Positions 8,701-28,222 of a DNA stretch of 29,449 bases are shown here, in pieces. Numbering within the stretch: position 1 is the stretch's first letter; every line of letters starts with the position of its first letter. Source of the DNA: Macrostomum lignano (Eukaryota); NCBI GenBank assembly GCA_002269645.1, contig NIVC01004985.1, positions 1 to 29,449 on the forward strand. Reading direction: 5' to 3'. The translations under genes and the position numbers were made by a program. A model generated the notes under the pieces. It did no database searches and had not been told where the DNA came from. It saw nothing but the letters and a program-made list of their open reading frames with translations.

Positions 8701-8824
8701 GTTCCAGACAACGGCAGAACACACGAAATCATAGCGAATGATATGTCTATGGTCAAGATGACGGAGTTTTAAAGAGTCTCTGTTCATAGGGCGAGTAGAA
8801 TCATTTTCATAGAGTCGCGATAGA

Positions 8825-9367
8825 ATGGAAGGCATTCATTTTCCAATCAATCTGACAATCTGCCTATCGACGAATTAGGCAATCAATGTCGACTCGTTCG
8901 AACTGAACTTTATTTCTGAGACTTCAAACATCGAACCACGCAACGACGACTTTGCCGCGTTCCTTGACTATACATTCAAAGTGATCGTTCTAACGATGAA
9001 CTGCCGTGCCTAGATGGCGAGCAACTTGATGTTAACGAGATGGATCGAGTAGAAATTGAAAGCCTACCTGCCGAAACGAGGAAGCAGATGTACATTCACG
9101 GTGAACGCTTCCTTAATTTCCTAGCGAGTGAGAAACTACGAGACGTTTCAGAAGTGCCGGCCGAAACCCTCAATCAGTACTTCAGGTACTTCTAATTTAA
9201 ATTGAAGCGGCAGGATGGAAAGTCATATTCCCTGCTCCTGGCTCGGATGCCACTGTCTCCATCCAATCGGGCCGCGCCTATGCTTTACCGGCTTCAATAG
9301 TCACGACAACCCTGTGGCTAAGTTCAGTTTCAATGGATGCAGCTTTAATCAATGCAAGTTCAACTAA
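8825..9367 (+). mobile_element. Internally deleted, decayed Crypton relative
   Basis: Translates to LPCLDGEQLDVNEMDRVEIESLPAETRKQMYIHGERF and TLNQYFRYF*FKLKRQDGKSYS, matching the N-terminus of the 2605-4067 protein. It jumps near 9230 to HDNPVAKFSFNGCSFNQCKFN*, matching that protein's C-terminus. Has stops and frameshifts. Confidence 0.8.
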
Positions 9368-9700
9368 ATTTTGTGAGACATTTGTGCGACGAATTAACTA
9401 TAGCTAAAAGTGTGCTTTTGATTGTTATATGTTAAGTTTAAAATATACGCGTTAACTTAAAAAATTATACCACTTCTAAAAATTCCAAACAATGACCGGT
9501 CATTGTATGAATGTCATTGCCTTGAACTAAATTACCATAGACATTTTGAACATTGCTATTGTTTAACTGTGACTTGATAAAAGCTGTCGAAAGAATCACA
9601 TATGCTGGTCTAGGGAGCGGAACAGAGAACCATCGACTTGACGCAAGCGTTAACGCGTAATTTTTAAGTTGCAACTCTAGATTCCTCTTTCCGCAACTAA

Positions 9701-12128
9701 TTAGTCCTCATTGATGCACTTCTGGCCATCTGTAACAAGTCCAATAGCGGCCAGTGCTATCACCAAAGACACGGTAATGCCAAAATAGAACGCAAACAGG
9801 CAGGTGTCAACGCCTGAAATTATGGTGCTCCATTGACAGCGCAGAGCGTTCTCGCAGGCGGTCTCAGACTCGTTGTCGGGCGACAAGCTCTGCCGGACTG
9901 AACCGTCGGCTTCCGGCTGCCGACGGCTCCGACGAGCGACGAACGAGTGAAAGAACAGCGTCCGGAGCAGACGTCCCGGGGGAGCGGCGCGGCAACACCG
10001 GCTGTGGCAGCTGAGAACGAAGGCGTTGCCCAAGACGACGGTCATTGTCATCACCACCGCCAGAGTGCAGTAGCAGGCTGGACCAGGAAATAGAAGAGAG
10101 TGGGCGAGTGCGTATGAGAAAAATTTGAAATCGAGTGGGTTAACGTCGAGAGGAAGTGGTACATACAAAGCCGTGGGTACAAGTAAAGGATGCCGGAGCT
10201 CGTGCTACATTGATAAGAAGAATAAACAACAAACTAGCTCGTACGAGGTCCGGCAAGTAAGTATGCAGTCATTCATTCACAAGGTCGTCTGGTATGCAGA
10301 TAGACTCGCATTAAAAAACAACTCAACAAAGAACGTGATAACCCAAGCCACTCTAAGTTTATAGCTAAATTTCTTTTGCGAATTTTAACTTGAGTAACTT
10401 TGCTGTTGTTACTCAAAAATCATTACAAATCATTTTCATCAACATAAACGTAAATCATAAACGAATAGATTTATATCGTTTTTTGTCGAGTGACACAACT
10501 CCTGTGCAATTAACTGCAGCAGATATCTGGATTTATGTCCACAGAACTCACTTAGCAGAGGGACGGATTCACTCTGCGTGGGCGTGTGCTCATTCACCAT
10601 CTGCAGGAACACGCACATGGACAGCACGATGGTGATGCTGAATGACATCCGCTCGCCGCAGTCCGGTGGCAGTCGGAAGGTGACGGTGGAGATGGCGAGC
10701 AGCAGGAGGCTGGGCAGGATTAGGTTTATCACGTAGAAAATGGGCCGTCTCTGAAAAAAAATATTGGAACGTGATGTTGCCTAAAAATTTTGCAAGCCAA
10801 TTAAATTTTTTAGATACAGACGCAATATTCTTACCTTGAAAGTGATGGCAAACTGCAGAATATCAAAGTAGTAGTCCACAGTCTTCCTGATTGTCGCTCC
10901 TGTAATGCAAAACTCGTCGTTGCGGGCCAGGTACTTCGTGATGGAGTCGTTCTCTAGGTAGGCTCCGATGTGCAAAGCCAGCACCTGCTTCGAATGAATG
11001 GCTGACGAGATGGGCACTACGCAGCGCTGCTTGTCATAGGGAAACTCGAACATGCTCATTGGGCACTTGCTGGTAATCACGTACTGGGAGGTGTACATTA
11101 CCGATCCCTGAGAGCTAACGTGAGCCATTGCGTTGCTAAATGACACCCGCTGTATGAACAAGCTGCAAGTTTTGGTTGGACAGTGTAACGTTGCAAGCAT
11201 CCCGAGGATTGCTTTTTTATTGCTCTTGAGTTTAGTAACGTCTATTAGAGCTTCCATTAACCATGCAGTTCAGACACACGATTTGCTTACTCTTAAAATG
11301 CTTCAGTAATGCCGCATCGTCAACTCGTTGAATCCGCAAGAAAAATGTTGTACAAAGTCCCAGTAATATTCTATAGAGGGCTTCTACTTACCAGTTAGAG
11401 GAATATACAAAAGCAAAGTGGGTATCCACATTGCAGACTGTACACTCGTATAAACAACCAATGGACTCATTGATTTTTTTTTCATTTATATTAATTAATA
11501 CACAAACGAGTATCTACCTAGTAGAACAGAGCAGCTAGTGAGAATCAAAATGGTAACGAACACATCCCGGTCTCACAGATCGATGAAAGACACATCCGGT
11601 AGCCACAGCAGCCTGGCCGGAAAGTAGACCGCCGTCTCGCTGTCCAAACTGTCGTTGAAGCGACCGTGCCAGGCAAGTCGGCGGTCTGTCCAGGACTGGA
11701 AAAAAGTTGATGACTTTTTACCTGTTGCTGATCCTGAAAAATCTGCAGAACATTAGAGAGTGATTCGCGGTCTCTAAATATGTCTTACCAGTGTAAGCCA
11801 CAGGAGTAGACTGACCTCCTGAGATGCGGAATTCTGAACAGCAGAAATAATGAATAATTAATGAGTAAATGCGAGGAACATTACGTACATAAATCAAGTT
11901 CATTAGTTGATATCGTCCAAAACTCACGACAGCCACCAGACTATTAAAGTTGGTGTGCACCCGGACCAGATTAGCCGTCCCATTATCCGGTGGCGGTCTC
12001 ACATCCGGGTTGTAGCCGTTGGCAGACTTTAACCGCAGTGCCGCGGCAATTCGTTCATCAGAGGAGACATCTGGCACCGTGGCGGTCGCGGTGGCAGCGC
12101 AGATCAAAATTAGGCCTAGTAGCAGCAT
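9701..12128 (-). CDS. Cys-loop ligand-gated ion channel subunit A (nAChR-like, non-alpha), apparently intact, ~422 aa
   Basis: Six exons with GT-AG introns in consistent phase: 12128-11928, 11833-11789, 11695-11577, 11162-10835, 10750-10552, 10077-9701. Signal peptide, WTDRRLAW, LWLPDV, Cys-loop CPMSMFEFPYDKQRC, M1-M2 FRLPPDCGERMSFSITIVLS, M3, M4. Confidence 0.88.
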
Positions 12129-13086
12129 GTGAGATCAGTAGCCCTGGTCGCACGGAATTGCTTAGAACTTCAGCTGAAGTCTTGTGGGTCTAACTGCATC
12201 TACCACTGGTCATGCAGGCCATCCTATATCCTTTTTAGTGGCAGTGCTTTCTGTTCGTCTATCCCTCAGAATCCACTCATCTCAGTCAGTTCCACATCCC
12301 TGGCCTCAGTGTTTACCCTTCTGCCCGGATCCGCTGGCCCGACCTTGCTTGGCAAAGCACTCTGTTTCATCAAATTTGGTCGTGCATGGCTCACTAAAGC
12401 TGCATATATGCATATCGTTATATAACATCACGTTTCTCCCTGGGCCACCCTTCCAATGTTCAGAATCGTACCTTTTCTGCACGTTAAATCGCCTGTCTCT
12501 GCAGATAGGAGTATCTGCTTTTTATGTGCCAATTTCTCTTCTTTGTTTTTCTCCTTGCTAGCTCCCAGAGAGTCTAAACGCATTCTACTCATTCTCTCTG
12601 ATTCAAGCCTTGTGGCCCGCTGTCAGAATCTTTTCATAATCCTATTCATATTTGAGCTTTCAGTCAATCGTTGATAGTTATTAACAAACAGAGATTCGCT
12701 GAGCAAACAAAATCTGTCCGCTTGCTCTGACACGAGCTTCATAGTCAGTTGGCTCAAAAACTTTCAATTAATAAAATCAGCATGACAGCTTTTTGCTGAT
12801 CCCAAAAAGGCATCAAAGTCAGTGAGTAATGCTCCTTTTGCGTCAAAGGTGATATATATTTATAGGACTTTCCTATTGTAGTTTAATTTGCAACGAGTAG
12901 CACTAGTAGTAGTTTGTGCAGCTGTTAAAAATATAGTATTCATTACGGTTTTCTACTATAAATAAATATTCCTTCTTCGGATATACTCTTCCGACTATCT
13001 AAAGTCCATCTGTAACTCGAAGTTGTCTCTGTTAATCCAAAATACTTCGTGGTCGTGACTGCCCAGTTCTTCACAACTCTTCATCT

Positions 13087-15152
13087 TCAATAATTACTCG
13101 ACATGTCGCAGTTGGTCCGCGAGTTCGTGATCTCCAGGATTAACAGCGTCAGCGTCAGCGCCAGCTTCAGGCTGAAGAAGACAGCGAAGAAGCAGCGGTC
13201 GGCGGCGAACAGCAATGGGGATCCATTCTTTGCGAGGGTCGTTGTCCCGGCAACGCGGAGTCTGCTCCGCCTGCGGTTGACTTGGCGTAGCTGGTCGCCT
13301 GGGCGAGACGACGTTCAACTCGCTCTCGTTGGATTCCTGCGAATGGGGTGCCAATTTTAACCGCAAATGGACACAGAAACTTATAGATCTGCCAAATCTG
13401 ACACAGGCTTGGCAGTCTTAACAAAATCCAACCCAGCTCTCCGTCTCTCCCTTACTCTCACCGCGTTCCGGACAGCGGCGGTGGCGCTGTGGTTTCGAAC
13501 CTGGTAACACTTTCTGCACTGCAGCCGGGCACATGCGAACATATTGAGAAACAGAAGTCGCATTAGCCGGCTTGGGACTTTGGTATGCTCATTCTCGGAC
13601 GAATGCTCAAAGTAGCAGCTCAGTACGAAAATGTTGGCAATCAAGTGAAGCATTGTCAGAAACACCGCGAGGCTGAAGTACCAGGCTGGAAATTGGAGGA
13701 GGACAAATAGGTCATGAGTCTCAATATTCCAGCCTGTAGTTCACTCTCAGTGTTGGATTGAAATTAGCTCGAAACTCACTGAGCAAAGGCACAGATTCCC
13801 CCTGTGGAGGCATATAGTTGCTGCTGAGCTGCAGGAACACGCACATAGACAGCACGATGGTGATGCTCAATGATATTCGCTCTCCGCACTCGGGCGGCAG
13901 GCAGAAGACCAGGGTAGAGATGTAGAGCAGCACGAGACTCGGAATGATCAGGTTCATGAAGTAGAATAGTGCTTTACGCTGAAAGTGTCAAAGGTGAAAC
14001 TGGCTCTGCGAAAAAACGGGGACTATGACAGGGGAGTCCACAAAAAGTGTGTGATCCCCGTTCCAACTCAACCAAATTCTGAGAAGTTTCTACCTTTATT
14101 TCCACCTGCAGCTGAACAATATCGTAGTTCCACTTATCGATAGAATTTGAAACGCTGACGTTCATCACGCAGAAGTCGTGGTTCTTGAAGAGGGAAGGCG
14201 TGATTCCAGGTGGTCCAGGCTCGATGCGCAGTGGTTTTTCTCGTGTGCACCACCGAAGATACGCGCTGGTGGCAGATCTGCGTGTCGTGTAGGGAAAGTT
14301 GGCCATATTCATTTCGCACTTGGACCAGGAGAGCAGCTCAACAAGGAACAGCACCGAGCCGTCGCTGCTTAAAGTCAGGAAAACTTTATCGCTGGAGGTG
14401 CGCCGGAAGTGCAGGCTGAAAGGTTACATGAGTACCATTAGATGAATGTCACCGTTAGTCCATTATCTTGAAGTTTCTCTAAGAGAACAATCGGGGTGCC
14501 ATTGGGAGACTTAGCAAAGCGGTATGGCTGCAATTGCATAGGAATGATCAAGCCCAAGGAAAAAGTGTCGCACTTACAGGTTGCCGAAGGCCACATCCGG
14601 TTGCCAGAGCAGACTGGCTGGCACAAAAATGGAGCTCACGTTATCGAAGGTAGAGTTGAATTTTCCTTTCCAGGCCAGGCGGCTGTCCCGCCAGTACTGT
14701 AGTGAAAGTGCAAATTAAATGAATCGATAGCTCACTGCTGCACCGTGAGTCTGATGTAATAAAACTCGATGCGTCAATGTCTGCGGCAGCAATGAACTTA
14801 CGAGTCACGTACCAAATTGAACCAGGTTTGCAGCACGATCTCCTGCGTTGCCGAGTCCTTCATTTTTTGGTTAGAAATGATTTAATGCTCACGATCTGCT
14901 CCAAAATTCAACATTGTTCTCACAAAAAATCGACAAAGCCGAAGTACTCACCACATGAGCCAGGCTTTTCAAGTTGAACAAGACGGTCACCAAGTTGGCT
15001 GAGCCGTTGTCCGGTGGCGGCCGGACGTCTTTGTTGTAGTCGGAATTTAAATTCAGCGCCGTTTTCAGGGCCTCATCCGGGGACACTGAGGCAGCCGCCG
15101 CGGCACGGCAGAGCAAGAAAACTATGAAGCTTGATAGCGGAGACTGCGGCAT
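13087..15152 (-). pseudogene. Cys-loop channel subunit B, frameshifted
   Basis: Same exon layout (YNKDVRPPPDNG; DSATQEIVLQTWFNL; YWRDSRLAW; CEMNMANFPY; FCLPPECGERISL). Has +2/+1 indels inside the Cys-loop exon (~14290, ~14233) and a +1 shift before M4 (~13208). Confidence 0.8.
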
Positions 15153-15715
15153 GCTAATGAGCTGGAGTCTGGACGCGGCTCAGACAGGTGGTTTGGGCTC
15201 ATTATTTATCCAGCAGTTGCAGCCCCTCCATTCCCCACTTCCCCAGCCAACTTGGACATCCCCGGTAGAGTCTGCCTCGGTAATTATTTCTCTTTTAAAA
15301 CCTCTAAAAGCGTTGACAGCTTGAGCTGCAGCCAATAAATTCCTGCCCGTTAACAACCCGATAGGGGCAATTATTATTGGATGCGAAGACAAATTGAGAT
15401 AATAAAATTTATAAAAAGAGTTAAGACTATTTATTGAATTTTTGACAAATAGAGTTTGCAGGTAGTTAGGCTACGGAGCAGCTAAGTAGGTTTTATTACC
15501 TCTACGTTGCTCAAAGCCCATTTACGTAATTGACAAAGTAGTTACAGACCACTAATTGCACAGAGGGTGGCTCACTCGCATTAGGTTTTGTTGTGGAGTG
15601 CGTATTAAAAATTAAAGCATTTTGATGGGGCAGCTGCAGGCCTATGGCTGCCAAAAAAAGTATGAGAAGTATGTCACCAAGGATATATTATTAGCTAAAC
15701 TCAAGAAACTATTTT

Positions 15716-16475
15716 TTAACTGTCAGACAGACACGCTACTCATAGCAGAATCTAAGCCAGCGTCAGGCCGAAAAAGATCGCGAAAAAGCAGCGGTCAGCA
15801 GTGGCCACGACAGCGCTCCAGCTGTTGACATCAGTGGCCCGGCAACGCGAAGGCTGCTCCAACTGCGAGTCGAAGTTGACGGTTCGTCGCGACGAGATGT
15901 CGCTCATTTCTTTGCTGTCAGCATCACTGACCTGTGGGACCGTGACACATTTGGTTTGGCTTCTCCTGATAAAACGGCACTAGCAGTAAACGAACACTTA
16001 CTCCGATGGAGCTTCGTTGCGCAACACTGTTAAAATTTTTACTTCTGGACGGCTCTCGACAAAATCGGCGCCCGCAGACGAATCTATTGAGAAACAGCAG
16101 CCGAGTCAGACGATTGGGGACTCGAGCATGCTCAGAAAACTGCTCAAAGTGGCAACTCAGAACGAAGGCGTTAGCAACCAGATTAGCCATGGTCAGAAGT
16201 ACCGCGATGCTGAAGTACCAGCCTGCAGAATTTCACAGGAGCAGGTCCTTATTCAACAGACACTATTTTTAATCTCAATAAAATAAAAGAGTCCGGCCGC
16301 GACACTCACTGAGCAGCGGTACAGAATCTCCTTGAGTTGGTATGTAATTGTCAGTGAGCTGCAGGAACACGCACATCGACAGCACGATGGTGACGCTCAG
16401 TGACATTCTCTCGCCGCATTCCGGCGGCAATCGGAATACCAAAGAGGAGATGGCGAGCAGCATGAGGTTCACGAC
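15716..16475 (-). pseudogene. Cys-loop channel subunit C, transmembrane half only
   Basis: FRLPPECGERMSLSVTIVLS, WYFSIAVLLTMANL and ADRCFFAIFF exons are present. M1 lacks the IIPSL segment, M4 has TAG at 15754-15752, and no extracellular-domain exons were found before the viral element. Confidence 0.8.
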
Positions 16476-16684
16476 AGAATGCTGTCCTTCGCTGCAGTTT
16501 GAAATGCATGACAAACTTGTATTGCCTATCAGCATAGAATACAAAGTGAAAAGAACCTGAGCACCAAACCTACATAGCAACTCGGAGCTCCACATATTCG
16601 TATTGCACATCTACTGACTTGGCTGTGCTGACGTTGACAATGCAGAAATCACTGTTCCTATCCAGGTAGGTTGTCAGCGAGTCC

Positions 16685-16933
16685 AGTAGTATATACGATA
16701 CAAAATAGCCAGCAAACCGTTCTCACCATTGCAAACAATTTAACCCTTTATCAGTGTGAAATGACTTGTTTTCCCTTCATTTTCGCTCGTCTTCACTTCG
16801 CTCAACTCGCTTCGCTCATCCTCGCTTCATTTCGGTCAAACAAGTCATTTCACACTTACAACGATTAATTCTCTTTGAATGGTGAGAACACGCTCTCGTC
16901 GAACGCTTTGGTTTGCTGGCTATTTTGTATCGT
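16685..16933 (+). repeat. Left terminal region with an internal inverted repeat
   Basis: 16695-16718 is the exact reverse complement of 16910-16933, and 16719-16730 of 16878-16889. Confidence 0.85.
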
Positions 16934-17023
16934 CAACGCTTCCAACTCTCCCCAATACACACAAACTCTCTATAACCCGTCGCACGCGCCGCAGGCGCGA
17001 AGGGTCTTTTTCTGTTACTAAAA

Positions 17024-17338
17024 ATGACCCGAGTTTACACCTTTTCTGTTAGTGATACTTTTGAGACTGTTGCTAAAAATGCAGAGATAATAAAACAACA
17101 TATCTTGAACGGAATAATTGATGAAGTTTATTTAAAATATGACGATAAACATGACCTAAAACTTTATCCATTAGAGTTAGATGAGATGTATGATTTAGAA
17201 CAAGAGGGAGAGTTAATATTTCAACTTGGAGATTATTTAAATTCGGATGATTGGGAGGTTAGATCAACAGATTCCGAATCAACAAATAGTTCATATGAAA
17301 CCAGTGATTCTGAGAATGAAATTGAAATTTTTATGTAA
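17024..17338 (+). CDS. Small acidic hypothetical viral protein (104 aa)
   Basis: ORF preceded by TAAAAATG, like other element genes; D/E/S-rich; no motif recognised. Confidence 0.6.
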   Translation: MTRVYTFSVSDTFETVAKNAEIIKQHILNGIIDEVYLKYDDKHDLKLYPLELDEMYDLEQEGELIFQLGDYLNSDDWEVRSTDSESTNSSYETSDSENEIEIFM

Positions 17339-17353
17339 AAAAATATTTAAAAA

Positions 17354-17578
17354 ATGAATTATTATTCTATAACAGAAACGACGTTTATTATGAAAAATAT
17401 ATATAAAAAAATGAAGGTAAATTATTCCTACATCGGAAATGTGCCGGTTAATGAACTTAATCAAAATTTAAGTTTGATATCTGTTGAACAAATGTCAATA
17501 ATAATCTTAGTAACAATAATAGTAATAATATTGTTTTTGTTTGTTATAAAAAATTTACTACCCTGTTGTCTTAAGTAA
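17354..17578 (+). CDS. Small single-pass membrane protein (74 aa)
   Basis: AAAAAATG start; hydrophobic IIILVTIIVIILFLFVI followed by PCCLK. Confidence 0.55.
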   Translation: MNYYSITETTFIMKNIYKKMKVNYSYIGNVPVNELNQNLSLISVEQMSIIILVTIIVIILFLFVIKNLLPCCLK

Positions 17579-17588
17579 CTGTTCAAAC

Positions 17589-19195
17589 TTAGTTCGCAGA
17601 CATTAGCTGGTTCTCATAAAAAGAACCCAATATTTCTTCACCGTCCTTATCAGCAATTATATAGGTTGTAGGATTGGTATTTAAAACTTTACTGATAGTA
17701 AATTTCTCACTTATTTTCCAATATCCTTTTCTTCCCTTTTCAAACTTATCTTTCCATTTATAGATATAAACAGAATCACCAACCTTAAAACCTTTAGTTT
17801 TCTTTTTTTCAAATTCTCCAAAAGTAACTTTAACTTTTTCAGGATTGTTATAAGCTTGTTGAGGAGTCATCTTTATAGCCGAATGATATGAATTGTTATA
17901 ATCTTTCACAACGTCTGGTAATATTTTTACCCACTTTTGATTTCCATTCAGACTAAATTGAAACCACAATTTCTTACCTAAAGTTCGATTAAATCTTTCT
18001 ATTAATGCGTTTTTACTTTCGCCGTAAATAGAATAAATTTTATTAATATACTCCCCATTCGCGTCTTTTTTCCTTTCTTGTCCTTTTTCAAAATGATATA
18101 ATTTATACATATGAGGATTGTAAAATTCTTTTCCTTCATCAACACACAACCTTTCACTTTTTTCTCCAAGACTTCTAAAAGCAGCCGCAACATCCTCTCC
18201 TTTTTTGGATTTTAAAGGAACAGCCCACGCATATCGAGTAAAACCATCTAATATGGTTAAGATATATTTATATCCTCTTTCGTTCGGCATCGACATTAAA
18301 TCAGCATACCAAATTTCATTCTTTTTGAAGTTCATGATTTTTCTATAAAATTTAGGTTTTCGATATTCTTTATGAAGAATCTTTGCCTCATCAGAACTTA
18401 ACCCGCCGCCACTTAATAATAAACACTCAACACAATTATTTCCATGTTGATTGTAATTAATTCCCAATCCAAATTTAACTTTAGACTGTAAGATTTTTTT
18501 AACCATCCACCGAGTTAATCTTTGGCTTACCGATAACCCCTGTAAGTTATCTAATCCTTGAATCATTTTTCTATCAGCTTCATGTTTTAATCTTAATGCT
18601 TCCTCGGGTGAGTTCTTATCAGCATCTCTGTATGCTAAGTCATGATAGTATGCTAACCAATCAATACCGTTAATGGGAATTGAATCGGCTTTTGGTGTAT
18701 TATCAGGATTTAATCTCAAATCTAACCTAGTACCCGGCAGTTTGCCCTAAATCTTTCGAAATAGGCTGGAGCACACCTTAAGCGGATAAATTACCGCCCA
18801 CCTCCGTCTGCTCTCTGAACCTTCTCCATATCTGCCGACTTAGGAGCTTGGCTGCGCATTGCCACCGTGTCTTCAAGCTTGTTACCTTTGGGAAGAGGAG
18901 TTACCTCTGTTCCTTCAAAAGATTTCTCAATTGAAGTGGTACTTGAAGCTGTATGACGGGTTTCGCGCAATTTGAAGGTGTCGCCACAAATAGTGACTAG
19001 CAAGGACATTGCCTTCCTCACTCAGGCCACGGGTTAACCTGCGAAGTTGTAAGACGGGATGTGTAATTCATTTGTATACCTTCCAGTAGTAAAGATTGGT
19101 GGTAAGCTTGTTAATCCTTTTTGAACATCTAACAATCCTCCTTCAAATACTAATTGTTCGAACCTTCGGTTCGCATGCGTCGCATGATCGCTCAT
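17589..19195 (-). CDS. PLA2-RVE integrase fusion, 435 aa after intron removal (exons 19195-19037 and 18737-17589)
   Basis: Spliced junction ELHIPSYNFAG|PGTRLD..PINGIDWLAYYHDLAY..EADRKM is a parvovirus-type PLA2. It is followed by the DDE triad WYADL, CVDEGKEF, NALIERFNRTL and the Polinton-type C-terminus FEKG..W..EKF..GEEILGSFYENQL. Confidence 0.92.
18738..19036 (-). ncRNA. Group I self-splicing intron (IC1-like), 299 nt, no internal endonuclease
   Basis: Exon ends in U and intron ends in G. P1 CAGGU/GCCUG with U.G at the splice site; P3 CACCUUC/GGAGGUG; P4 UUGCGC/GCGCAG; P7 GA-GAGCA/UGCUCC; P5abc with A-rich bulge and GAAA loop; CCUAAG/UAUGG receptor; P8, P9, P9.0, P10. Excision restores the reading frame and the GPG motif. 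Confidence 0.96.
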
Positions 19196-19745
19196 TTTTA
19201 ATAGCCTTAAAAATACATGAAAGCACCAATTGTTTTGCAAATTCTTCAATGGTTGGTTGCTTAACTTTTTTATAGTTATTATCTACGCTAGTTAAGTATC
19301 TTTTATTTCTCCAATTTTCAGACTTTTTAATCTGATCTTCGTCTTTGTAACTAAATGAAGAAGCGGGAATGAAATGATCAATATCTAACTTTCCAGTATA
19401 ATTTTTTGGAACATAATAATTTCTTGTGAAATTTAACCAATCAAAAAAGAATTCTTTTGTGCAACCAAGATAGGAGATATAATGCTTGTCATGAAAAGTT
19501 CTCAATGCCCAATTTATTCTACCTCTAATTAGACTAATATTTTTGTAATTTTCATCAGTGCGATATTTATTTTTTGCATATTTATTACATTTATCTTTAT
19601 TGTTTATTCTCCACATAGTACATTTAACTTTCTCACAAGATCGACAAAGATTTTTAATTTTTTTTGTGTCATTTCTCCAACAAAAAAATTCTTTAGTCAT
19701 CGGTTTCTCAATTTTACACGTAGTACAAATCTTTTTAGATTCCAT
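19143..19745 (-). CDS. Free-standing HNH-family endonuclease with N-terminal Zn finger
   Basis: CTTC..CRSC, YLGCTKE, DIDHFIP..SFSY..WRNKRYL..DNNYKK resemble HNH endonucleases of large eukaryotic DNA viruses. Its 3' end overlaps the PLA2 start by 53 nt. Confidence 0.75.
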   Translation of the reverse strand: MESKKICTTCKIEKPMTKEFFCWRNDTKKIKNLCRSCEKVKCTMWRINNKDKCNKYAKNKYRTDENYKNISLIRGRINWALRTFHDKHYISYLGCTKEFFFDWLNFTRNYYVPKNYTGKLDIDHFIPASSFSYKDEDQIKKSENWRNKRYLTSVDNNYKKVKQPTIEEFAKQLVLSCIFKAIKNERSCDACEPKVRTISI

Positions 19746-19772
19746 TTTATAAAAAATAAATTTAACAATTAA

Positions 19773-20444
19773 TTAAATACCTGTATGTCCAGCAGCTTTC
19801 GCGGCAGCTAAAACAAGTTTTCTAGGAGTTTTAAATCCTTCACCAACAGCCGGCATGTTATTTATAGAATTAACAATCCTTTTATACAAGCTGGTATTTT
19901 TAACATGGGCTACTCCTAACTCATCGTAAAAATTTTTAGCACTTACTAATTCGTCTCTAGTATATAAATCAGGGTTAAATTTTACCCTAGGGTTCGTAAT
20001 AATATTAAATGCTCCACCCAATTCTCTATATAGTTCATTTCGATTTTTATCAACTCCACCAATTCGATAATTACCACCACCTAAATCTGTCACAGCAATA
20101 CTACGTGGCGCATCTCTTGGAAATTCTACCCGATTACCCCGATCTGCAGCCCTAATCTCTGCAACTCTCAATTGAGCTTGATCAACATCATAAGCAGGTG
20201 GCTCATCCAAAATTTCATCCTCTTTTGGCTCCGTATTTTTAGCAATTTTTTCCAGAAGGTCTTTATCTGTTTTTTCTAGTTCACTAATTTTCCCCGTAAT
20301 AGGATTAACAAAAGGAGCAGCAAATTTTTCACCAGCTAATTGTATTCCTAACTTTCTTTTTTGTAAATTTCTAACAAAATCAGAATATCTTTGTTTCTCT
20401 TTATAAATCGCTAACTCTCCATCAACGTCCATAAATTGGCTCAT
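19773..20444 (-). CDS. Hypothetical viral protein (223 aa), possibly core/DNA-associated
   Basis: Clean ORF divergent from the capsid gene with AAAAAATG start; charged helical N-terminus (KFAAPFVNPITGKISELEK). Confidence 0.7.
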   Translation of the reverse strand: MSQFMDVDGELAIYKEKQRYSDFVRNLQKRKLGIQLAGEKFAAPFVNPITGKISELEKTDKDLLEKIAKNTEPKEDEILDEPPAYDVDQAQLRVAEIRAADRGNRVEFPRDAPRSIAVTDLGGGNYRIGGVDKNRNELYRELGGAFNIITNPRVKFNPDLYTRDELVSAKNFYDELGVAHVKNTSLYKRIVNSINNMPAVGEGFKTPRKLVLAAAKAAGHTGI

Positions 20445-20478
20445 TTTTTAACATAAAAAACTTTTTTAACATAAAAAA
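20444..20478. promoter_or_regulatory. Candidate bidirectional promoter with a tandem 17-nt repeat
   Basis: TTTTTTAACATAAAAAA at 20444-20460 and 20462-20478 fills the 34-nt gap between two divergent ATGs. Confidence 0.5.
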
Positions 20479-21951
20479 ATGGCTGAAACAAAAACTATAT
20501 GGAGTGATAAATTTCATTTCAAAAAGCACCGTCAGTATATTAATGAGGTCAGAGCGAGAGATTTAAACTATACTCTACCAACAAGCGATAATACAAATAA
20601 CTTTACTAGCGGAACGGTAGCTTTTGACATCGGCGCAACCAACACCATATTGGATATGAAAAATGCATTTTTCCGCGTTAGATGGTTGTATACTAGAAAT
20701 GATGGAACTGCTCTAGCAGCCGGAGATATCGCAGATCGATCTGGAATAATAATAGAAAATGATTGGTTTTATAAATGTTTTTCCCAAGCTCAACTAACTG
20801 TTAATGGTGCCGAGGTTGAGACATCATCAAACCCCGCAGAGATTAATGGAGTTTTGAAACATTTAAATTATACTTATTTATCAAAACAAGTTGGTGATAA
20901 TGTTGGGTGGATGCCGGATAAGGGCAATGGTCAAGCAGTAGTTTTCCCTAATGTACAAAACGCAGCTGGTGCAGATACTGCAGCTCTTATTGCTTACATT
21001 AATACAAACATAGTTCCAGTTGTAACCACCATGACTAATACAAAAGATATTAATACTGGTTATATAGATAGACAGAATAAATTCCCAGTTGCAGTTTTAA
21101 CCACGGCAACGGCATATGAGCAGGACTTTTCAATCTTTCCACTATTTGGATTCTTCTCACCAAATCGGGTATGGAAAGGATTAAAATTTGGGGTACAGTT
21201 GCAAATATCTGGTGGATATCAGCCTAGGATACTTTATGGAACCTCTATTTCAACCGATATAGCAGTTCGCATAGCATCAATACAATTAGTCGTGCCAACT
21301 ATTGAGGTAACAGCACCACTTTTAAAACATGTCGATAATCAGTTAACGCATGATCAAGAAATATTTTATTTGAATCGTAGACATTTTATGCGAACCATTA
21401 ATAATAATCAAGATTCATTCCAGTGGCAAATACTGACATCAAAACGTCGGGTGAGATATATTTTTGTTTGGTTTAAGATAACAAATAGAAGGAGTAAAAG
21501 AGCAAATGGGGATTTATATTGGCTTCAATCAGGTGATGTAGCAGCACAGGGTGCCACTGCAACAGACAATGCGGTTGCGGCCATTAACGAGTTTAATGTT
21601 CAGAATATCCGCCTGCAGGTTGATGACCAATACTATCCGGTTAAAGATCCTCTTAATCTAAATATTGCAAATAATGATGTTAATGATTTTATAAAATATT
21701 ATCAAGATTATGCCAAAAATGAAGCGTTTGCCGTCCCTCAGTACACACCCACAGAGTTTCTAAACATTCATCCAGTAGTTGTTTATGATCTAACGGCACA
21801 GAAAGAAAATGTAGCCAATGTTGGGCTTAATTATATGTTAGAGATTAATAAAACCGGTAATCAGGCAATAGACGCCCACGCTTTGTTTCTAGAGGAATAT
21901 ATGTCAATTGCTAAAGCCGACGGCACCATCGTTCGGGACGCCCCGCTGTAA
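20479..21951 (+). CDS. Major capsid protein (double jelly-roll, Polinton PY/hexon-like)
   Basis: 490 aa, beta-rich; KCFSQAQLTVNGAEVETSSNP, RRVRYIFVWF, NIRLQVDDQYYP, HPVVVYDLT; located upstream of ATPase and penton. Confidence 0.88.
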   Translation: MAETKTIWSDKFHFKKHRQYINEVRARDLNYTLPTSDNTNNFTSGTVAFDIGATNTILDMKNAFFRVRWLYTRNDGTALAAGDIADRSGIIIENDWFYKCFSQAQLTVNGAEVETSSNPAEINGVLKHLNYTYLSKQVGDNVGWMPDKGNGQAVVFPNVQNAAGADTAALIAYINTNIVPVVTTMTNTKDINTGYIDRQNKFPVAVLTTATAYEQDFSIFPLFGFFSPNRVWKGLKFGVQLQISGGYQPRILYGTSISTDIAVRIASIQLVVPTIEVTAPLLKHVDNQLTHDQEIFYLNRRHFMRTINNNQDSFQWQILTSKRRVRYIFVWFKITNRRSKRANGDLYWLQSGDVAAQGATATDNAVAAINEFNVQNIRLQVDDQYYPVKDPLNLNIANNDVNDFIKYYQDYAKNEAFAVPQYTPTEFLNIHPVVVYDLTAQKENVANVGLNYMLEINKTGNQAIDAHALFLEEYMSIAKADGTIVRDAPL

Positions 21952-22000
21952 GCGGTGCAGGTCTCCGACCGTCGCACCAATTTAAATTTTATCTTTAAAA

Positions 22001-22763
22001 ATGGCAAAAGCAAAACACAATAAGATATTTCCAAATGATCCTTTTCTTTGTTTAGTAATTGGTGGGTCGGGTAAAGGAAAAACACACTTTGTTTATGACC
22101 TGTTAACAACGGATGGAATGATAGACTATAATAATTTAATAATTTATACTAACAAACCTAGAATAAAATATTATGAATTTCTTAAACATGGATTAAAAAA
22201 CAAATTAAAAAAAGATGTCTTGTTTAGAATGTTAAGAGCATATGAGCAATATGAGGATGATGACGAACCGCGATTTACACTCGATGACATTGAGGATTTA
22301 TGTAAAACAATGGCACAACAACCGGAAAACATCACCGAACGAGCCCCAACCGTTAGAGTATCAACCCGATTACCCTATCATCAAATTCCAAAAAATGATA
22401 AAACACTAATTATTTTTGATGATTGTATTAACGACAGTGATCAAGAATTGCAAAAGGATATTTTTGTTAGTGGTAGAGGGGATGGAATTGGCGCTTTTTA
22501 TCCAACACAGTCCTTTAGAGAATTAGAATCGATTATAAAAAAATGCAAGTTGTTGTGTAATGTTTGATTTAGATAATTATGATTTACAAAATATACACGC
22601 TAGATTTAATCCCGGGTTGGATATAAAACCATTTAAAAGTATGTGTAAAAAAATTTGGGATGACAGCCAATACAAACATATATATATCAACCCTAGGTTA
22701 GAAAGGAAAAATCGAATCTTAAGAGATCTGATAAAAGAAGATAATGAGGAAGAAGAGACTTAG
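22001..22763 (+). CDS. A32/FtsK-like packaging ATPase, one frameshift
   Basis: Walker A GGSGKGKT, Walker B LIIFDD, GRG..FYPTQS. The frame changes in the A7 run at 22537-22543 and continues as NASCCVMFDLDNYDL..YKHIYIN. Confidence 0.9.
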
Positions 22764-22811
22764 TTCGTTCCGAAGGAACGCGACCCTACGGGGCGATTTA
22801 CCACTATAAAA

Positions 22812-23597
22812 ATGGCAACAAATTTAAATACTATAAAACAATTGGTAGATAGAACTAATTCAAAATTTAGTACAACCTTACAGTTTATAATGACAACCAG
22901 TGAGCAACGGATTCAATTGCGCGATCCGTTACAACTCGATCAAAGCCTAAGTTATCAAATAGGTTTGATATTATTTTCGGTTTTTAACATGCCTCAATTA
23001 ATTAATGCAACAAATAATCAATTTAGATATTCTAAAGATTCAGGAGCCAATTGGACAACATTTAGTGTTAGCCCGGGTGCGTATAGCTATACCGATTTGA
23101 ATGCTTATATCGAAGGAGAATTAACAGCTAATGGCGATTGGGTAGCGGGCGCGATTGTTATAGGTGTGGATTTACCGTCTGGAAGATTCACACTATCACT
23201 AGAATCCGGATATCAGGTTGATTTTACAATTGCAAATTCACTCAGAACCATACTTGGATTTAATTCCCGAATAGTTACCACATCAAGCACCGGCGATACA
23301 GTTGGAAATATTGAGGGTGGAGTCAACACAATTAATATAACAACCGACATATCAAACGGCGGTTATATAACAGACGATAACGGAGTTTTGGTTCAACGTG
23401 GAATTATATATTCAATACCATTTCTTGCTGTTCCAATTGGAGAGAAAATGATTGTTTCACCTCAAACCCCAATATATTACCCATTAAATCAATATAGTGT
23501 TCAATCAATTTATATTAGGATTGTAGATGAAAGCGATAGATTAATAAGTTTTGGTGGGCAGTCAATAACAGTGATTTTACGTATAAAACAGGTTTAG
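22812..23597 (+). CDS. Minor capsid protein (penton, single jelly-roll)
   Basis: INATNNQFRY, PGAYSYTDLN, PQTPIYYPL, IRIVDESDRLISFGGQSITVILRI are typical of Polinton PX proteins. Confidence 0.88.
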   Translation: MATNLNTIKQLVDRTNSKFSTTLQFIMTTSEQRIQLRDPLQLDQSLSYQIGLILFSVFNMPQLINATNNQFRYSKDSGANWTTFSVSPGAYSYTDLNAYIEGELTANGDWVAGAIVIGVDLPSGRFTLSLESGYQVDFTIANSLRTILGFNSRIVTTSSTGDTVGNIEGGVNTINITTDISNGGYITDDNGVLVQRGIIYSIPFLAVPIGEKMIVSPQTPIYYPLNQYSVQSIYIRIVDESDRLISFGGQSITVILRIKQV

Positions 23598-23607
23598 TAC
23601 TGTAAAA

Positions 23608-23778
23608 ATGGGTAACAATAGTTTAAAAAAGCAATCATATAAAGTTCAAAATGCAAAAGATAATTATGAAATCGAATTAACAAAATTAAAACAATTACAG
23701 GCAGAAAAAATCCGAAAGGAGCTGTTAAAATCCAAACCTACAAAACTAACTAAAACCAAGAGTTTTTCAGGAACATAA
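23608..23778 (+). CDS. Small basic protein (56 aa) not in the ORF track
   Basis: TAAAAATG start; MGNNSLKKQSYKVQ..FSGT*; exactly fills the penton-protease gap. Confidence 0.6.
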   Translation: MGNNSLKKQSYKVQNAKDNYEIELTKLKQLQAEKIRKELLKSKPTKLTKTKSFSGT

Positions 23779-23779
23779 A

Positions 23780-24220
23780 ATGACCATGACGTGGGATGAT
23801 TTTAAACAAAGATATGGAACAGACACAACAAGCAATATCGAATTAACAAATTGGGCGCGGCAACTAAAGATAAAACCATTCAGATGTGTTATGCGGGATG
23901 AGATAAAAAATTTACCAATATATGGATGTTTCATTGTTAACATCGAAACGACAAAAGAAAATGGTGTTCATTGGTCAGCAATTTATTCAAAACCTAAACT
24001 TGTTTATTTTTTTGATTCATACGCGCTTCCTCCGTTACAGGAAATAAAAGATAAATTTAATCATACTAAAAATCGTTTATGTGGAGATCATCACGAACAA
24101 TTTCAAACTTTTGATAAAAGTTATTGCGGACAAGCGGCGTTGTATTTTTTATATAGGGTCGAAAAGGTAAAACAGGTAACTCCCGAAGTATTTAAGATAA
24201 TTTTAGATTCTATAAAATAG
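23780..24220 (+). CDS. Adenain-like cysteine protease (maturation protease)
   Basis: GVHWSAIY, YFFDSY, QFQ...CGQAALYFL give the His/Asp/Gln/Cys catalytic set. Confidence 0.92.
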   Translation: MTMTWDDFKQRYGTDTTSNIELTNWARQLKIKPFRCVMRDEIKNLPIYGCFIVNIETTKENGVHWSAIYSKPKLVYFFDSYALPPLQEIKDKFNHTKNRLCGDHHEQFQTFDKSYCGQAALYFLYRVEKVKQVTPEVFKIILDSIK

Positions 24221-24229
24221 ACAGTAAAA

Positions 24230-26275
24230 ATGTTATTTTCTGGAACGCCCTCATGGAACGGAACAACAAGTACTGGTGGTGGTACGTCTGGTGGAATAAG
24301 CGTCACATTCGGAGATAACCGATATATTAATGAAGATGAAGGTTATAAAAAAAGTGAAGTTGATACTAAACTAAATTTAAAAAGAAATGTTGCAGATTCC
24401 TATACCAAAACTCAAATAGATGATTCATTAAATTTAAAACGCAATACGGCCGATTCTTATACCAAAACCGAAGTTGACAATGGGTTAAATTTAAAAAGAG
24501 ATATAACTGATTCTTATTCTCGAACTCAAATCGATGATTCATTAAATTTAAAACGCAATACGGCCGATTCTTATACCAAAACTGAAATAGATAATTCATT
24601 AAATTTAAAAAGAGATATTGCTGATTCTTATACCAAAACCGAAGTTGATAATTCCTTAAATTTGAAAAGAGATATAACTGATTCTTATACCAAAACCGAA
24701 GTTGATAATTCCCTAAATTTGAAACGGAATGTTGCCGATTCCTATACCAAAACCGAAGTTGATAATTCATTAAATTTAAAACGGAATGTTGCCGATTCCT
24801 ATACCAAAACGGAGGTTGATAATTTAGTTGGAGGTGGAGCCCCAAAACAAGATCGATTCCAAACGGTTGAAACTGGTCACATACCTACCATGGCAGATTG
24901 GAGTGGAAATGGTTTTGCAATAACCGCAAGCACCGCATTTAATACAACCGATTTTGCAAGCTGGAAAGCGTTTGATGGTGATGATTCAACAGATTGGGCA
25001 ACAAATAATACTCAAACCGATTATTGGATTCAAGTCCAATGCCCTTCCGCAATAATGTGTTATAAAATTGATTTGCGTGGTAGGCCATCGCCATCAACCG
25101 AACACCCAGCATCATGGCGATTTGAGGGGAGTAACGACAATACAAGTTGGGACGTATTAATACCTGCGGATAGTTCTGTAGTAATAAATAACTCAACTCA
25201 AACAATTAATGTCACACAAAATTTTGATAAAACATATTCATATTTCAGATTGTTCTGTCTTACATCAACCTCGGGTTCAACCAACCCCGGCTTGTCAACC
25301 TTCCAGATTTATAGACAGACGTTTACAATTCTTGATTTAAATTTAGGAGTGGTTAATCAATCAATTGATATGGGTAATAATACAATTACTAATATCTCTA
25401 CAATAAACGATAACACTTCTGTTGTTACTAAAGGTTATGTTGATACGCGAGTAACCCAAACGGCGGATGGCCGAATGTCTTTTAACGATAAAATAAAATT
25501 GGATGGAATACCCGCGATTGATGCCGCTTTGTACGAGCCTGTGATTTTCAATTGGACTGGATATCAAAACCCAACCACAGCCGGCGATATTTTTCCAACT
25601 GGAAGTTTTGTTGGTGACGCTACTTATATTGATTATCAAAATGGAGCTAGAATTACTGATGAAGCAAGTGGTCAGTCTGGAGCGTTGCAATTTAATTTCA
25701 CCCATTTTCGTAATATATCCGCCTCCTTCTATTTCCGAGTTATTAATGCCACAGGAAGTGGTGCTGATGCGGTTTGGTTTTATGCATATTGTCACGAACG
25801 TCCAACAAGTGAATTTGGATCCGGGTTAACAACCAACGCCGGCTTGATTGTGTTTGCGAGTGAATGGCATGATAGAGTTGGAGTTGTTTGGAGTAATATA
25901 AAATCAGACGGAGCAACAGTTCGTAATGATGTTCTTAATGATGCTGATCAAACTATAACTTATGCAAATATTGATAACGGCGATTGGCATTTATTTGAAA
26001 TTAATATTTTAAATCAAAGAGTTTGGTATCAAATAAGCACATACAATGTTTCAGCTAAAACATATACGCTAATTGGGCAAAACTTTTTTACATATGATAG
26101 TGGAACTTGGGGAGAGTTAGATAAAACGGGAACTCTTATGGGGTTTGGTGCTAGAACTGGAGGGGCAGATGCTGCACATTTTATTCGTGGCGCTGCCGTT
26201 TGTGGTAGCACATCAGCAGGATCTGATTTTGCTGCGACCGCATATTTGGAACAGCCACAAGCCGAAATAGCCTAA
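24230..26275 (+). CDS. Fiber/receptor-binding protein: repeat shaft, discoidin (F5/8C) domain, L-type lectin-like domain
   Basis: 19-aa YTKTEVD repeats; AFDGD..W..WIQV..SWRFEGSND..W; VVTKGYVD fiber motif; SGADAVWF..WHLFEI..GFGARTG. Confidence 0.8.
   Translation: MLFSGTPSWNGTTSTGGGTSGGISVTFGDNRYINEDEGYKKSEVDTKLNLKRNVADSYTKTQIDDSLNLKRNTADSYTKTEVDNGLNLKRDITDSYSRTQIDDSLNLKRNTADSYTKTEIDNSLNLKRDIADSYTKTEVDNSLNLKRDITDSYTKTEVDNSLNLKRNVADSYTKTEVDNSLNLKRNVADSYTKTEVDNLVGGGAPKQDRFQTVETGHIPTMADWSGNGFAITASTAFNTTDFASWKAFDGDDSTDWATNNTQTDYWIQVQCPSAIMCYKIDLRGRPSPSTEHPASWRFEGSNDNTSWDVLIPADSSVVINNSTQTINVTQNFDKTYSYFRLFCLTSTSGSTNPGLSTFQIYRQTFTILDLNLGVVNQSIDMGNNTITNISTINDNTSVVTKGYVDTRVTQTADGRMSFNDKIKLDGIPAIDAALYEPVIFNWTGYQNPTTAGDIFPTGSFVGDATYIDYQNGARITDEASGQSGALQFNFTHFRNISASFYFRVINATGSGADAVWFYAYCHERPTSEFGSGLTTNAGLIVFASEWHDRVGVVWSNIKSDGATVRNDVLNDADQTITYANIDNGDWHLFEINILNQRVWYQISTYNVSAKTYTLIGQNFFTYDSGTWGELDKTGTLMGFGARTGGADAAHFIRGAAVCGSTSAGSDFAATAYLEQPQAEIA
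24344..24823 (+). repeat. 57-bp coding tandem repeat, 8 full units plus a partial
   Basis: Encodes YTKTEVDNSLNLKRNVADS variants; explains the antisense pseudo-ORF 24366-24845. Confidence 0.95.
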
Positions 26276-26331
26276 GGCTAAAGCCTAAGTCGCGAACCAA
26301 AGGTTCGATAACTTAAATATTTCTATATAAA

Positions 26332-26661
26332 ATGGCTTTTAGTAGAACTCCATCGATGCGACAAAATAACAATGTTATTATTCCTATTCCTAAACAAGAA
26401 TCAAATATAAAAACATACAAATCTCATACCAAATATTTATTTAGCCATGTGAATGTTCAGGATAATAAGAAACTTCAAGAATTAATTAAATTGTTAAAAA
26501 ACCATATCATACTTCAAGAGTTTTGGAAAATAGGATTTAAATGGGAGAAAAAAGAAAGAATCACTCCGATACAATACCTATTGAGCTCCGGACAAATACC
26601 CAAAGAGCGTGGGGAATTCATTTTGGTGCTATTAAAAATAGACGAAAATGTCGGTGTCTGA
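26332..26661 (+). CDS. Hypothetical viral protein (109 aa)
   Basis: TATAAAATG start, codon style of the element. Confidence 0.6.
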   Translation: MAFSRTPSMRQNNNVIIPIPKQESNIKTYKSHTKYLFSHVNVQDNKKLQELIKLLKNHIILQEFWKIGFKWEKKERITPIQYLLSSGQIPKERGEFILVLLKIDENVGV

Positions 26662-26790
26662 GGCAGATAAAAGGGAACGTGACCATTTTAACCAACGTAA
26701 AGGTCACATGTTAAGTAATGTTGATCGTATTAACTATGATTATATTTATATGTTAAAAAAGTAAGAAGGATTTCAAACCATATCAGAAAT

Positions 26791-27299
26791 ATGGATTTTT
26801 TCAATATTGGTTTTGGAAGCTTATCGATGTTATGTGTAATCGTTTTAGGTATTTTACAATCTATTCCAACTCTTAATTTATCTCAATTATTTTTAGGTAT
26901 TTCAATTGGCTCAATATCAGGATTTGAATTAATCAGAAATTTATCAATACTTATGGCAATTAAATTATATCTTAAAAAACGAAAGGATAAATATAAATCA
27001 TTAAGAGATATTGCAAAACAATATAAAAATCAGTTGTATTTATATGTGCAAAAATATTGGATGATGGAGAGATAACAATTCATGAGTTATCAACGGCGGT
27101 TGAATTATATGAAAAATATTTAAAAGATCGAAATAGAATTTTAGATGTTGAAACTTTTACCGATATGGAGTTAAAAGAGTTGAGACTCGATAAACCCAAA
27201 GCTCCGCCGATAGAAACTATTGAATACAAACCAGAAACTATGGCTATGGGGGTACAAAGCCCCCGATCAGGTAGCGCTGTAGAACTTCAAGTTGTTTAA
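26791..27299 (+). CDS. Polinton-type membrane protein split by one frameshift
   Basis: Two hydrophobic segments, then a shift at the A5 run 27050-27054 giving QKILDDGEITIHELSTAVELYEKY, similar to the DGxI..E..KY tail recalled from Polinton membrane proteins. Confidence 0.6.
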
Positions 27300-27779
27300 T
27301 TTTTCTAACGCATACGTTATATATTCTTCCCAAAGTGGTAATTCTCTTGTAATTCTAGGTTTAAATTTTTTATCAATACATAAAAATTCCAATGACTTTT
27401 TCAGTAACATTTCGTTAGGTATGTTACCTATCCTTATAAACTTTGTATTCTCTCGAATAAGAAAATTAAAATAATATCCAACTAAAATTAAAATCCTTTC
27501 GGAGTCTTTCGAACTTAATCCCTTTCCTTTATTTAAATTGAAAAAGTTGTTATATAAATAAACATTATTTCCGGGAATTAAAATTGGATGAGAAATGTCT
27601 CTTGTAAGATTTCTTAATATTGTGTTTTTAAAATAGTAATATGAATTTTCAATCTTTTTTGTTTTTTCAAATTGATATATTTTAGAACATGAATAGCACA
27701 TATGATATATATCTCCGCTTGCTGTTTGAGCTCTATGCATAGTCACGTTACATTTTTTACATTCGTAAATGTCTTTCAT
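27267..27779 (-). CDS. Hypothetical protein with N-terminal Zn ribbon
   Basis: CKKC..CYSC; AAAAAATG start. Confidence 0.65.
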   Translation of the reverse strand: MKDIYECKKCNVTMHRAQTASGDIYHMCYSCSKIYQFEKTKKIENSYYYFKNTILRNLTRDISHPILIPGNNVYLYNNFFNLNKGKGLSSKDSERILILVGYYFNFLIRENTKFIRIGNIPNEMLLKKSLEFLCIDKKFKPRITRELPLWEEYITYALEKLNNLKFYSAT

Positions 27780-27805
27780 TTTTTTGTTATTTTTTTAGAT
27801 TAAAA

Positions 27806-28138
27806 ATGGAAAGTTGGTTGAAAACCGATTCTAATGTGATTAATTATGTCACCCCCAATATGTTGGAGAATAAAGAATATAATATTATATGTTTGAGACA
27901 GGTTAAATTTATTGGACTTCAATCGATATTTTTACAATTGGATTCACATACAGTTCTATGTCTAAGTGGGAATGATGTTAAAAATTTTCCAGTTTTAGTT
28001 ATTAATAAACCTAAAGCGTTCATTATAAAATACAGCACCGAGGGTGGGTTGCAATTTAAAATAAAACAAACAAAAAATAAAAAGAGTGACAGGACTGTAA
28101 AATTAGCTTCCGTTTGGGAGACTGACGAAGATGACTAA
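27806..28138 (+). CDS. Hypothetical viral protein (110 aa)
   Basis: TAAAAATG start; no motif recognised. Confidence 0.55.
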   Translation: MESWLKTDSNVINYVTPNMLENKEYNIICLRQVKFIGLQSIFLQLDSHTVLCLSGNDVKNFPVLVINKPKAFIIKYSTEGGLQFKIKQTKNKKSDRTVKLASVWETDEDD

Positions 28139-28222
28139 ATTTTTTTATAAGAAAATGGAGATACAAATTATCCTTATCACTAAAGAGCGTGAACTTAATT
28201 ATATTAATAAAAAATAAATACT

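Follow-up and report, generated by a model that had tools for sequence, protein, structure and literature searches.

Introduction

Among the closest described systems is collaborative homing in phages (PMC3984707, PMC11296320), where an intron without an open reading frame (ORF) lies beside a free-standing nuclease gene and where, in the end state of the model, the same nuclease is also embedded in the intron. Both arrangements recur at the locus presented here, a PLA2-integrase gene of Maverick elements in Macrostomum lignano; the setting is instead an animal genome, the nuclease is similar to restriction enzymes with short sites, and the uniqueness of its target would come from a purge of that site. 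A further relative is intron-endonuclease interference, described for gp210 of phage PhiPA3 (PMC11620839) and for Bodo saltans virus (PMC5871332), in which an intron masks its carrier's target; such masking has been proposed or shown to act in viral competition (PMC5871332, PMC11620839). The present locus is alike in the masking, and its nuclease would harm intronless relatives. The enzymes of those two systems are, however, of the HNH or GIY-YIG type, and the available text of the two accounts describes no genome-wide avoidance of the site.

The nuclease itself is comparable to the Eco47II-family type II restriction-modification systems and to the restriction-modification pairs of chloroviruses (PMC10305163, PMC7019647), with which it has in common the Pfam family, PD-(D/E)XK-type residues, an EcoO109I-like fold and a C5 methyltransferase beside its viral homologues. 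The site GGNCC has been assigned to Eco47II homologues (PMC10305163), and host DNA is believed to be a target of the restriction enzymes that chloroviruses package (PMC7019647). The Maverick nuclease differs in that no methyltransferase occurs in the ORFs scanned, and self-protection would consist of site loss plus the intron.

Introns of about 300 nt that match RF00028 are on record in protein-coding genes of eukaryotic DNA viruses, namely protist Polinton-like viruses (PMC12220804) and chloroviruses (PMC7019647). A 2013 review knew group I introns of the nucleus only from microbial eukaryotes, in their rRNA genes (PMC3679873), and the 2025 survey, in its available text, lists those of Polinton-like viruses from three protist groups only, the elements of Paulinella, Desmodesmus and Rhodomonas, the one in Rhodomonas lying in an unannotated short gene (PMC12220804). 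Here, in contrast, the interrupted gene is the PLA2-integrase gene of animal Mavericks, and the intron is present in many copies, polymorphic and accompanied by a nuclease. The Alpha adintoviruses with PLA2X (PMC8502044) share with our elements pPolB, an rve integrase, a packaging ATPase, a parvovirus-type PLA2 and terminal repeats; their PLA2 has a pX-like tail, whereas here it is fused to the integrase, and in the available text the sole mention of an 'intron' concerns another virus group. No group I intron is reported in the accessible text on coral polintoviruses (PMC11131425), adintoviruses (PMC8502044) or nematode Polintons (10.1101/2023.08.22.554363), and the arrangement is not reported in the literature covered by our search on group I introns, Mavericks, Polintons, adintoviruses and animal nuclear genomes, a coverage that most subscription journals fall outside.

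Here we describe a group I intron, by prediction a self-splicing one, that masks a GGNCC site nearly purged from the Mavericks that carry it. Sequence comparisons make it probable that the intron protects its carriers from an Eco47II-family nuclease, and spreads together with it; many copies encode this nuclease, for which no accompanying methyltransferase was found. We regard the arrangement as a new variant of homing and interference systems, set in a protein-coding gene of animal-integrated elements.

Results

A Maverick element in host DNA

The window analysed is the whole contig NIVC01004985.1, 29,449 nt in length. A Maverick/adintovirus-like element occupies positions 16685–29449 and continues past the contig end. 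Its left terminal inverted repeat (TIR; 16685–17007) has a 6-bp target-site duplication directly outside it (16679–16684), and repeat and duplication are matched at both ends on contig C3108, which carries the same insertion with a 324-nt repeat at each end and an identical 6 bp flanking each. Both features were present in four of the six Maverick copies checked, three of them besides the C3108 insertion. With near-identical flanks, this one insertion is assembled on three contigs (C4985, C1446 and C3108), and copy counts from the assembly thus overstate the number of independent insertions.

Pfam identifies the rve integrase domain in the window element and a protein-primed PolB (PF03175) in the same insertion on C3108. 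The virion module (20479–26275, plus strand) is made up of a putative major capsid protein, an A32-like ATPase, a putative minor capsid protein and protease, and a fibre protein with an F5/8 domain; the capsid and protease labels in the window rest on ORF size and order, the Pfam matches being Pox_A32 (E 4e-4, below cut-off) and F5_F8 (E 1e-11), with no capsid match. Related copies fall into two Maverick families, the window copy belonging to family 1, and in family 2 a double jelly-roll capsid and an A32-like ATPase both score above cut-off. Replication modules appear to differ within family 2, given that the intron-bearing L287 has a PriCT-2/D5 primase-helicase gene (8082–9998) where the intronless L291 has PolB-related ORFs. 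PolB ORFs with an endonuclease VII domain were seen in L295 (5145–9125) and L291 (8661–9719).

Many gene starts of the element share a T-run and AAAATG, and two genes have the same short inverted repeat close to their ends (19159–19173 and 26293–26307). Hairpins related to this repeat are inserted in intron loops, and exon 1 thereby varies from 42 to 63 codons. These gene starts and hairpins are, we presume, reminiscent of giant-virus transcription signals. The left part of the window is host DNA with coding pieces of a ligand-gated channel and a C-type lectin. Tandem host genes for Cys-loop ligand-gated channel subunits, spaced about 2.5–3.2 kb apart, fill 9701–16610, and a 357-aa ORF at 2994–4067 with a weak QRICH1-domain match is possibly part of another mobile element.

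A group I intron in the PLA2-integrase gene

The PLA2-integrase gene lies on the minus strand. Exon 1 (19037–19195, ATG at 19195) has 53 codons, a length particular to the window copy (42–44 in most copies), and ends in the Gly codon GGT. It is followed by a 299-nt group I intron without an ORF (18738–19036, RF00028), which begins with UAA, ends in G, and comprises P1–P9 with a P5abc extension; we take it to be IC1-like. Exon 2 (17589–18737, 382 codons) encodes the remaining PLA2 domain, the rve integrase core (Pfam rve, E 8e-8) and a C-terminal part. The covariance match to RF00028 runs from 19046 to 18747 and scores 60 bits against a gathering score of 50 (E 1.3e-14). The earlier note had read the intron as opening with an in-frame UAA that would leave unspliced RNA with 53 aa and the two exons with 435, and the ORFs of the window together with the Rfam match bear this out: the first in-frame stop is the TAA at 19036–19034, after 53 codons, and the exons joined in frame encode 435 aa. 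If retained, the intron also shifts the reading frame.

Natural alleles of this family that lack the intron (L055, L062 and L091) pin down the junction independently. The L055 allele is a single ORF of 424 aa in which PLA2 (PF08398) passes the Pfam cut-off and rve (E 1e-6) falls short of it, and both Pfam domains occur in many of the 120 database homologues listed. The first internal Met of exon 2, Met58 (18566), a candidate start from which the integrase alone could bypass splicing as the earlier note proposed, has the AAAATG context of the element, lacks the T-run found before many of its gene starts, and is a largely conserved residue of a PLA2 helix. An Rfam scan of the whole window at the gathering threshold in fast mode missed the intron, and an E-value scan of seven loci recovered it only in L025; narrow scans found introns in L119 and L128, with L065 below threshold, and we attribute the misses of the broad scans to filter effects. 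Contigs of four runs guessed to be RNA (short, from a many-copy family and maybe DNA) covered both exons and the intron with no joint skipping the 299 nt, a result that counts neither way.

The ribozyme fold is conserved

In the P1 helix (19023–19041, minus strand), the internal guide sequence pairs with the end of exon 1 and places a U-G pair at the 5' splice site, which is retained in all 34 aligned copies; the UAA begins at the top of this helix and extends into its loop. The P3–P9 core is present, with the guanosine-binding G-C pair in the catalytic helix P7 (18768–18815, minus strand; 18815–18809 with 18773–18768). All P7 cells are paired, and three P7 pairs differ on both sides between the two Maverick families. 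With helix columns set by us, and the P6 columns left out of the between-family comparison, 99.7% of 3025 cells (89 pairs, 34 copies) were paired, against 38–47% when the partners were slid, and 9 of the 89 pairs had changed on both sides. Divergence of the intron from the window copy was 3.7–12%, against 12.7–29.7% at fourfold sites, in 13 family-1 copies most of which had been chosen by intron likeness; this fits either selection or recent spread. Pairing, two-sided changes and divergence agree with the earlier expectation of a conserved intron fold.

Intron classes at a single site

We classed 114 contig places of this genome, drawn as top matches of searches with DNA, exon 2 and the nuclease (197, 515 and 115 candidates) and not a census. 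Duplicate entries for one place were removed, together with L046, L056 and L087, which are rearranged or incomplete, and with L360 and L361, whose loci have no PLA2 gene. Some of the 114 are copies of one insertion, and the distinct junction haplotypes number 71. The places divide into 54 with a short intron, 27 with a long intron containing an ORF, 20 with a second intron and 13 without an intron, and each of the two families has intronless alleles whose frames are open. Intron starts are UAA in 39 of the 101 intron-bearing loci, UAG in 2, UAC or UAU in 40 and GGA in 20. UAA as a conserved gate was rejected, given that only 41 of the 101 introns begin with a stop codon. An in-frame stop nevertheless falls within 17 codons of the intron start in every one of them; such a stop near the 5' splice site is described as common in coding-gene group I introns and read there as aiding folding (PMC3984707). 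At the other end, 43 of the 54 short introns terminate in A (for example L005, L014 and L060) and the window copy in G; many of the A-ending copies retain a full exon 2.

The second intron is group I-like, occupies the same site in 20 loci (L065:1167–1494, L090, L333 and others) and scores 30.5 bits in Rfam, below threshold. It has P2, P2.1 and P5abc in common with the first intron and a different core, which we take to be IE-like; depending on which candidate 3' splice site is taken, the loop would lack Pro-Gly or be altered, or the frame would shift. In 12 of the 34 aligned copies (L005, L050, L053, L059 and L063 among them), the P2 of the first intron is swapped as a block for that of the second, which suggests recombination between the two.

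Two contigs from outside this genome, L119 and L128, have an intron at the same site, starting with UAU and CGA. In database proteins from other assemblies (P0001–P0008, P0012, P0015 and P0018), the nuclease continues into the core of the intron, or the end of the intron continues into exon 2, and these read-through proteins indicate that the pair of intron and nuclease occurs in further samples.

The intron divides a GGNCC site purged from the elements

The last three bases of exon 1, GGT (19039–19037), and the first two of exon 2, CC (18737–18736), together form a split GGNCC (18736–19039, minus strand) within the Gly-Pro codons of a PLA2 loop. Adjacent Gly and Pro codons always spell GGN CCN, and the intron lies between them, inside the site. 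Across 57 homologues, the loop reads Gly-Pro in 52 and Gly-Ala in 5. All 13 intronless loci have GGNCC at the junction, against none of the 101 that bear an intron.

Elsewhere in the element the motif is missing. The 12,765 nt of the window element contain no GGNCC against about 15 expected from dinucleotides (14.9–15.3), and a stricter Markov model gives 5.5 expected and none found for 17020–29449; the host flank in the window has 35 against 34.4 expected. Only 2 of 300 synonymous shuffles of the element reached zero, and in all four element stretches GGNCC was the most depleted of 16 such motifs under the Markov model. With the two exons set apart, the ORFs of the window element (3457 residues) have no Gly-Pro against 6.2 expected. 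Outside the loop, the 57 homologues have 6 Gly-Pro against about 48 expected, a figure confounded by conserved positions and of little weight.

The pattern recurs in related copies. Over spans of about 10 kb (9–10 kb) in family 1, nine of ten intron-bearing copies have no GGNCC; the tenth, L275, has four, within an inverted-repeat insert. Intronless family-1 copies have one (L267, at the junction only), two (L268) and four (L269), the junction site included in each. Eight of nine family-2 stretches have none in their bodies, intron present or not, and the ninth, L293, has seven from position 4541 on, probably in flank. Near the junction, the 101 intron-bearing loci have nine GGNCC in all against about 250 expected. 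The outside contig L119, whose gene is 35% identical, has none in its 8.6-kb locus against 4.5 expected. Depletion is partial in other polymerase families of the genome (1–7 against 2.9–10.4 expected, nine ORFs), which suggests that some of the pressure may be external.

An Eco47II-family nuclease inside and beside the intron

The long introns (family 2, 27 loci) carry in a peripheral loop an ORF for an RE_Eco47II-family nuclease, and in 30 family-1 loci a free-standing form, 62–69% identical to the intronic one, lies just upstream of the PLA2 gene. Against Pfam PF09553 (RE_Eco47II; cut-off 25.9), the intronic form scores 30.1 bits and the free-standing form 19.2, below the cut-off. The nuclease has about 160 aa, without an extra DNA-binding domain, and across 18 sequences E-x-K is invariant and a D near-invariant. 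Its structural model (pLDDT 92.6) had as best match among 48,161 chains the restriction enzyme EcoO109I (Z 9.8, rmsd 3.7, 162 aligned), the next reaching Z 7.4. The recognition site of EcoO109I contains a GGNCC core. Similarity to annotated Eco47II proteins is distant (28% over 50 aa), and this, together with the free form falling below the Pfam cut-off, means that the site of the nuclease may differ or be longer.

All 57 nuclease carriers bear the intron, and none of the 13 intronless loci has the nuclease (Fisher p 1e-4, the copies not being independent); no intronless contig carrying it appeared among the 103 matches listed. The Eco47II-family nuclease is absent in cis from 44 of the 101 intron-bearing loci. 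In the outside contig L128 it lies inside the intron at the same site. In Mavericks its neighbouring genes are that for PLA2 and one of 223 aa that belongs to no known family, and no methyltransferase was found among the 17 window proteins and 14 sister-copy ORFs scanned.

Homologues of about 30% identity occur on viral and metagenome contigs, many of them labelled giant-virus bins; searches of plasmids (tblastn), PHROGs and PDB sequences gave no match. In 20 of 20 viral loci checked, chosen for long flanks, a convergent C5 methyltransferase adjoins the homologue. The best plasmid match of one such methyltransferase adjoins an annotated Eco47II-family gene; annotation of the viral methyltransferases gives no specificity. 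GGNCC is only mildly depleted in viral restriction-modification loci (376 against 461 expected, 75 loci in sum), and in 37 loci picked for larger expected counts its median is lower than that of the other motifs among 16 compared. An 18-nt intron pattern had three matches in viral contigs, all unrelated.

In 47 loci, the window included, the slot upstream of the PLA2 gene is filled by a weakly HNH-like ORF. In the window this putative nuclease ORF has 200 aa and overlaps the start of exon 1 (19143–19745, minus strand); it matches no Pfam or PHROG family, and its nearest named Atlas clusters, HNH at 0.87–0.88, are only a lead. The HNH-like ORF and the Eco47II-family gene replace one another in this single slot, and in L016, L078 and L089 the former continues in frame into exon 1.

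Discussion

The locus shows a hallmark of a homing intron, with a nuclease inside or beside an optional intron and with intronless alleles extant. On the reading we prefer, the nuclease would cut unmethylated GGNCC and would derive from a viral restriction-modification pair whose methylase was lost. The element would protect itself by losing the site, and the intron would hide the one copy of GGNCC that coding forces it to keep. With the site purged throughout the element, even a short-site cutter would hit an intronless relative essentially once, at the point of insertion; the cut would either disable that competitor or be repaired from an intron-bearing copy, which would amount to homing. 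Splicing would restore the Gly-Pro codons in RNA only. The window copy, which has no gene for this nuclease, would be an immune, ORF-less carrier, and the dependence of PLA2 and integrase on splicing would be the cost of the shield, one that would keep the fold under selection. Jointly with this reading, and on the same balance of probability, the early stop would be a by-product of the DNA-level shield. Several observations weigh against it. Host DNA has GGNCC at a normal rate, and an active short-site cutter would damage the host unless confined or active in the lytic phase only; any restriction of the enzyme to a cytoplasmic or lytic phase, by which the host would be spared, is conjecture. 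Intronless alleles, moreover, persist. The distant relation to annotated Eco47II proteins, the partial depletion in other polymerase families, the mildness of the depletion in viral loci, the 44 intron-bearing loci without the nuclease in cis and the copies with extra sites (L275, L268, L269 and L293) also count against it.

A broader proposition, which from sequence we hold to be evenly balanced between true and false, is that these Mavericks run restriction without modification: an enzyme of viral origin for GGNCC would have dropped its methylase, the site would have been erased down to the avoidance of Gly-Pro, and a self-splicing intron would hide the one that an essential protein imposes. 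The cutter would then serve both as homing endonuclease and as a means of attacking competing elements or large DNA viruses, with its free and embedded stages coexisting in a single genome.

The main competitor, which we consider possible though unlikely, is an ordinary homing intron whose nuclease has come to recognize a long target around the insertion site, as classical homing endonucleases do, the purge answering some other enzyme, for instance one from the restriction system of a large DNA virus that co-infects, and the intron masking the site against that foreign cutter. The problem of host DNA damage would disappear, the occurrence of one nuclease at a single site both free and encoded in an intron follows the route described for collaborative homing (PMC3984707), homologous restriction-modification pairs do exist on viral contigs, many labelled giant-virus bins, and other Maverick families here are partly depleted of the motif. 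Such a nuclease would, however, have to read a long target with about 160 aa and no extra DNA-binding domain; the two families that bear the nuclease are purged completely and others incompletely, and the motif purged is the nuclease family's own site. Entry by chance into a conserved motif, followed by neutral amplification with the elements and decay of the A-ending copies, seems to us the most improbable account, even though group I introns have a preference for conserved sites, the terminal G is missing from most of the short ones and many copies have broken frames. The helices are kept, with changes on both sides, and many copies that end in A retain exon 2 in full; exact exon ligation is described for a coral mitochondrial intron that has no terminal G (PMC6545197). 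That site, purge and nuclease family agree would also have to be a coincidence.

Scarcely more probable is the proposal of the earlier note that splicing gates PLA2 and integrase as a switch, the ribozyme answering Mg2+, GTP, temperature or, as could be added, a host factor and so timing expression. One part of it stands, in that the full fusion is impossible from unspliced RNA, a property generic to coding introns; the A at the end of most short introns, 43 of 54, could also slow the second splicing step, and a group I intron under ligand control has a precedent in the c-di-GMP riboswitch of Clostridium difficile (PMC3984707). That intron, however, lies in a 5' UTR behind an aptamer. No known aptamer was found here, with no other Rfam match in 18500–19300 at E up to 10, and the regulated part of the proposal finds no support: a stop opens only 41 of 101 introns, 13 loci are intronless, several of them with full open frames, and a second, different intron occupies the same site in 20 loci. 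A switch would also leave the GGNCC pattern unexplained, and a role at the level of DNA, as read from these sequences, would account for the position of the intron better than an expression switch.

Many copies of a group I intron thus reside in a protein-coding gene of elements in an animal genome, beyond rRNA genes and protist viruses. If the masking of GGNCC from an Eco47II-family nuclease is true, the intron would have a concrete protective job at the level of DNA, and a restriction enzyme would have a route to becoming a homing endonuclease without lengthening its target. One genome would then display the two stages of collaborative homing, and Mavericks would be seen to compete as active viruses.
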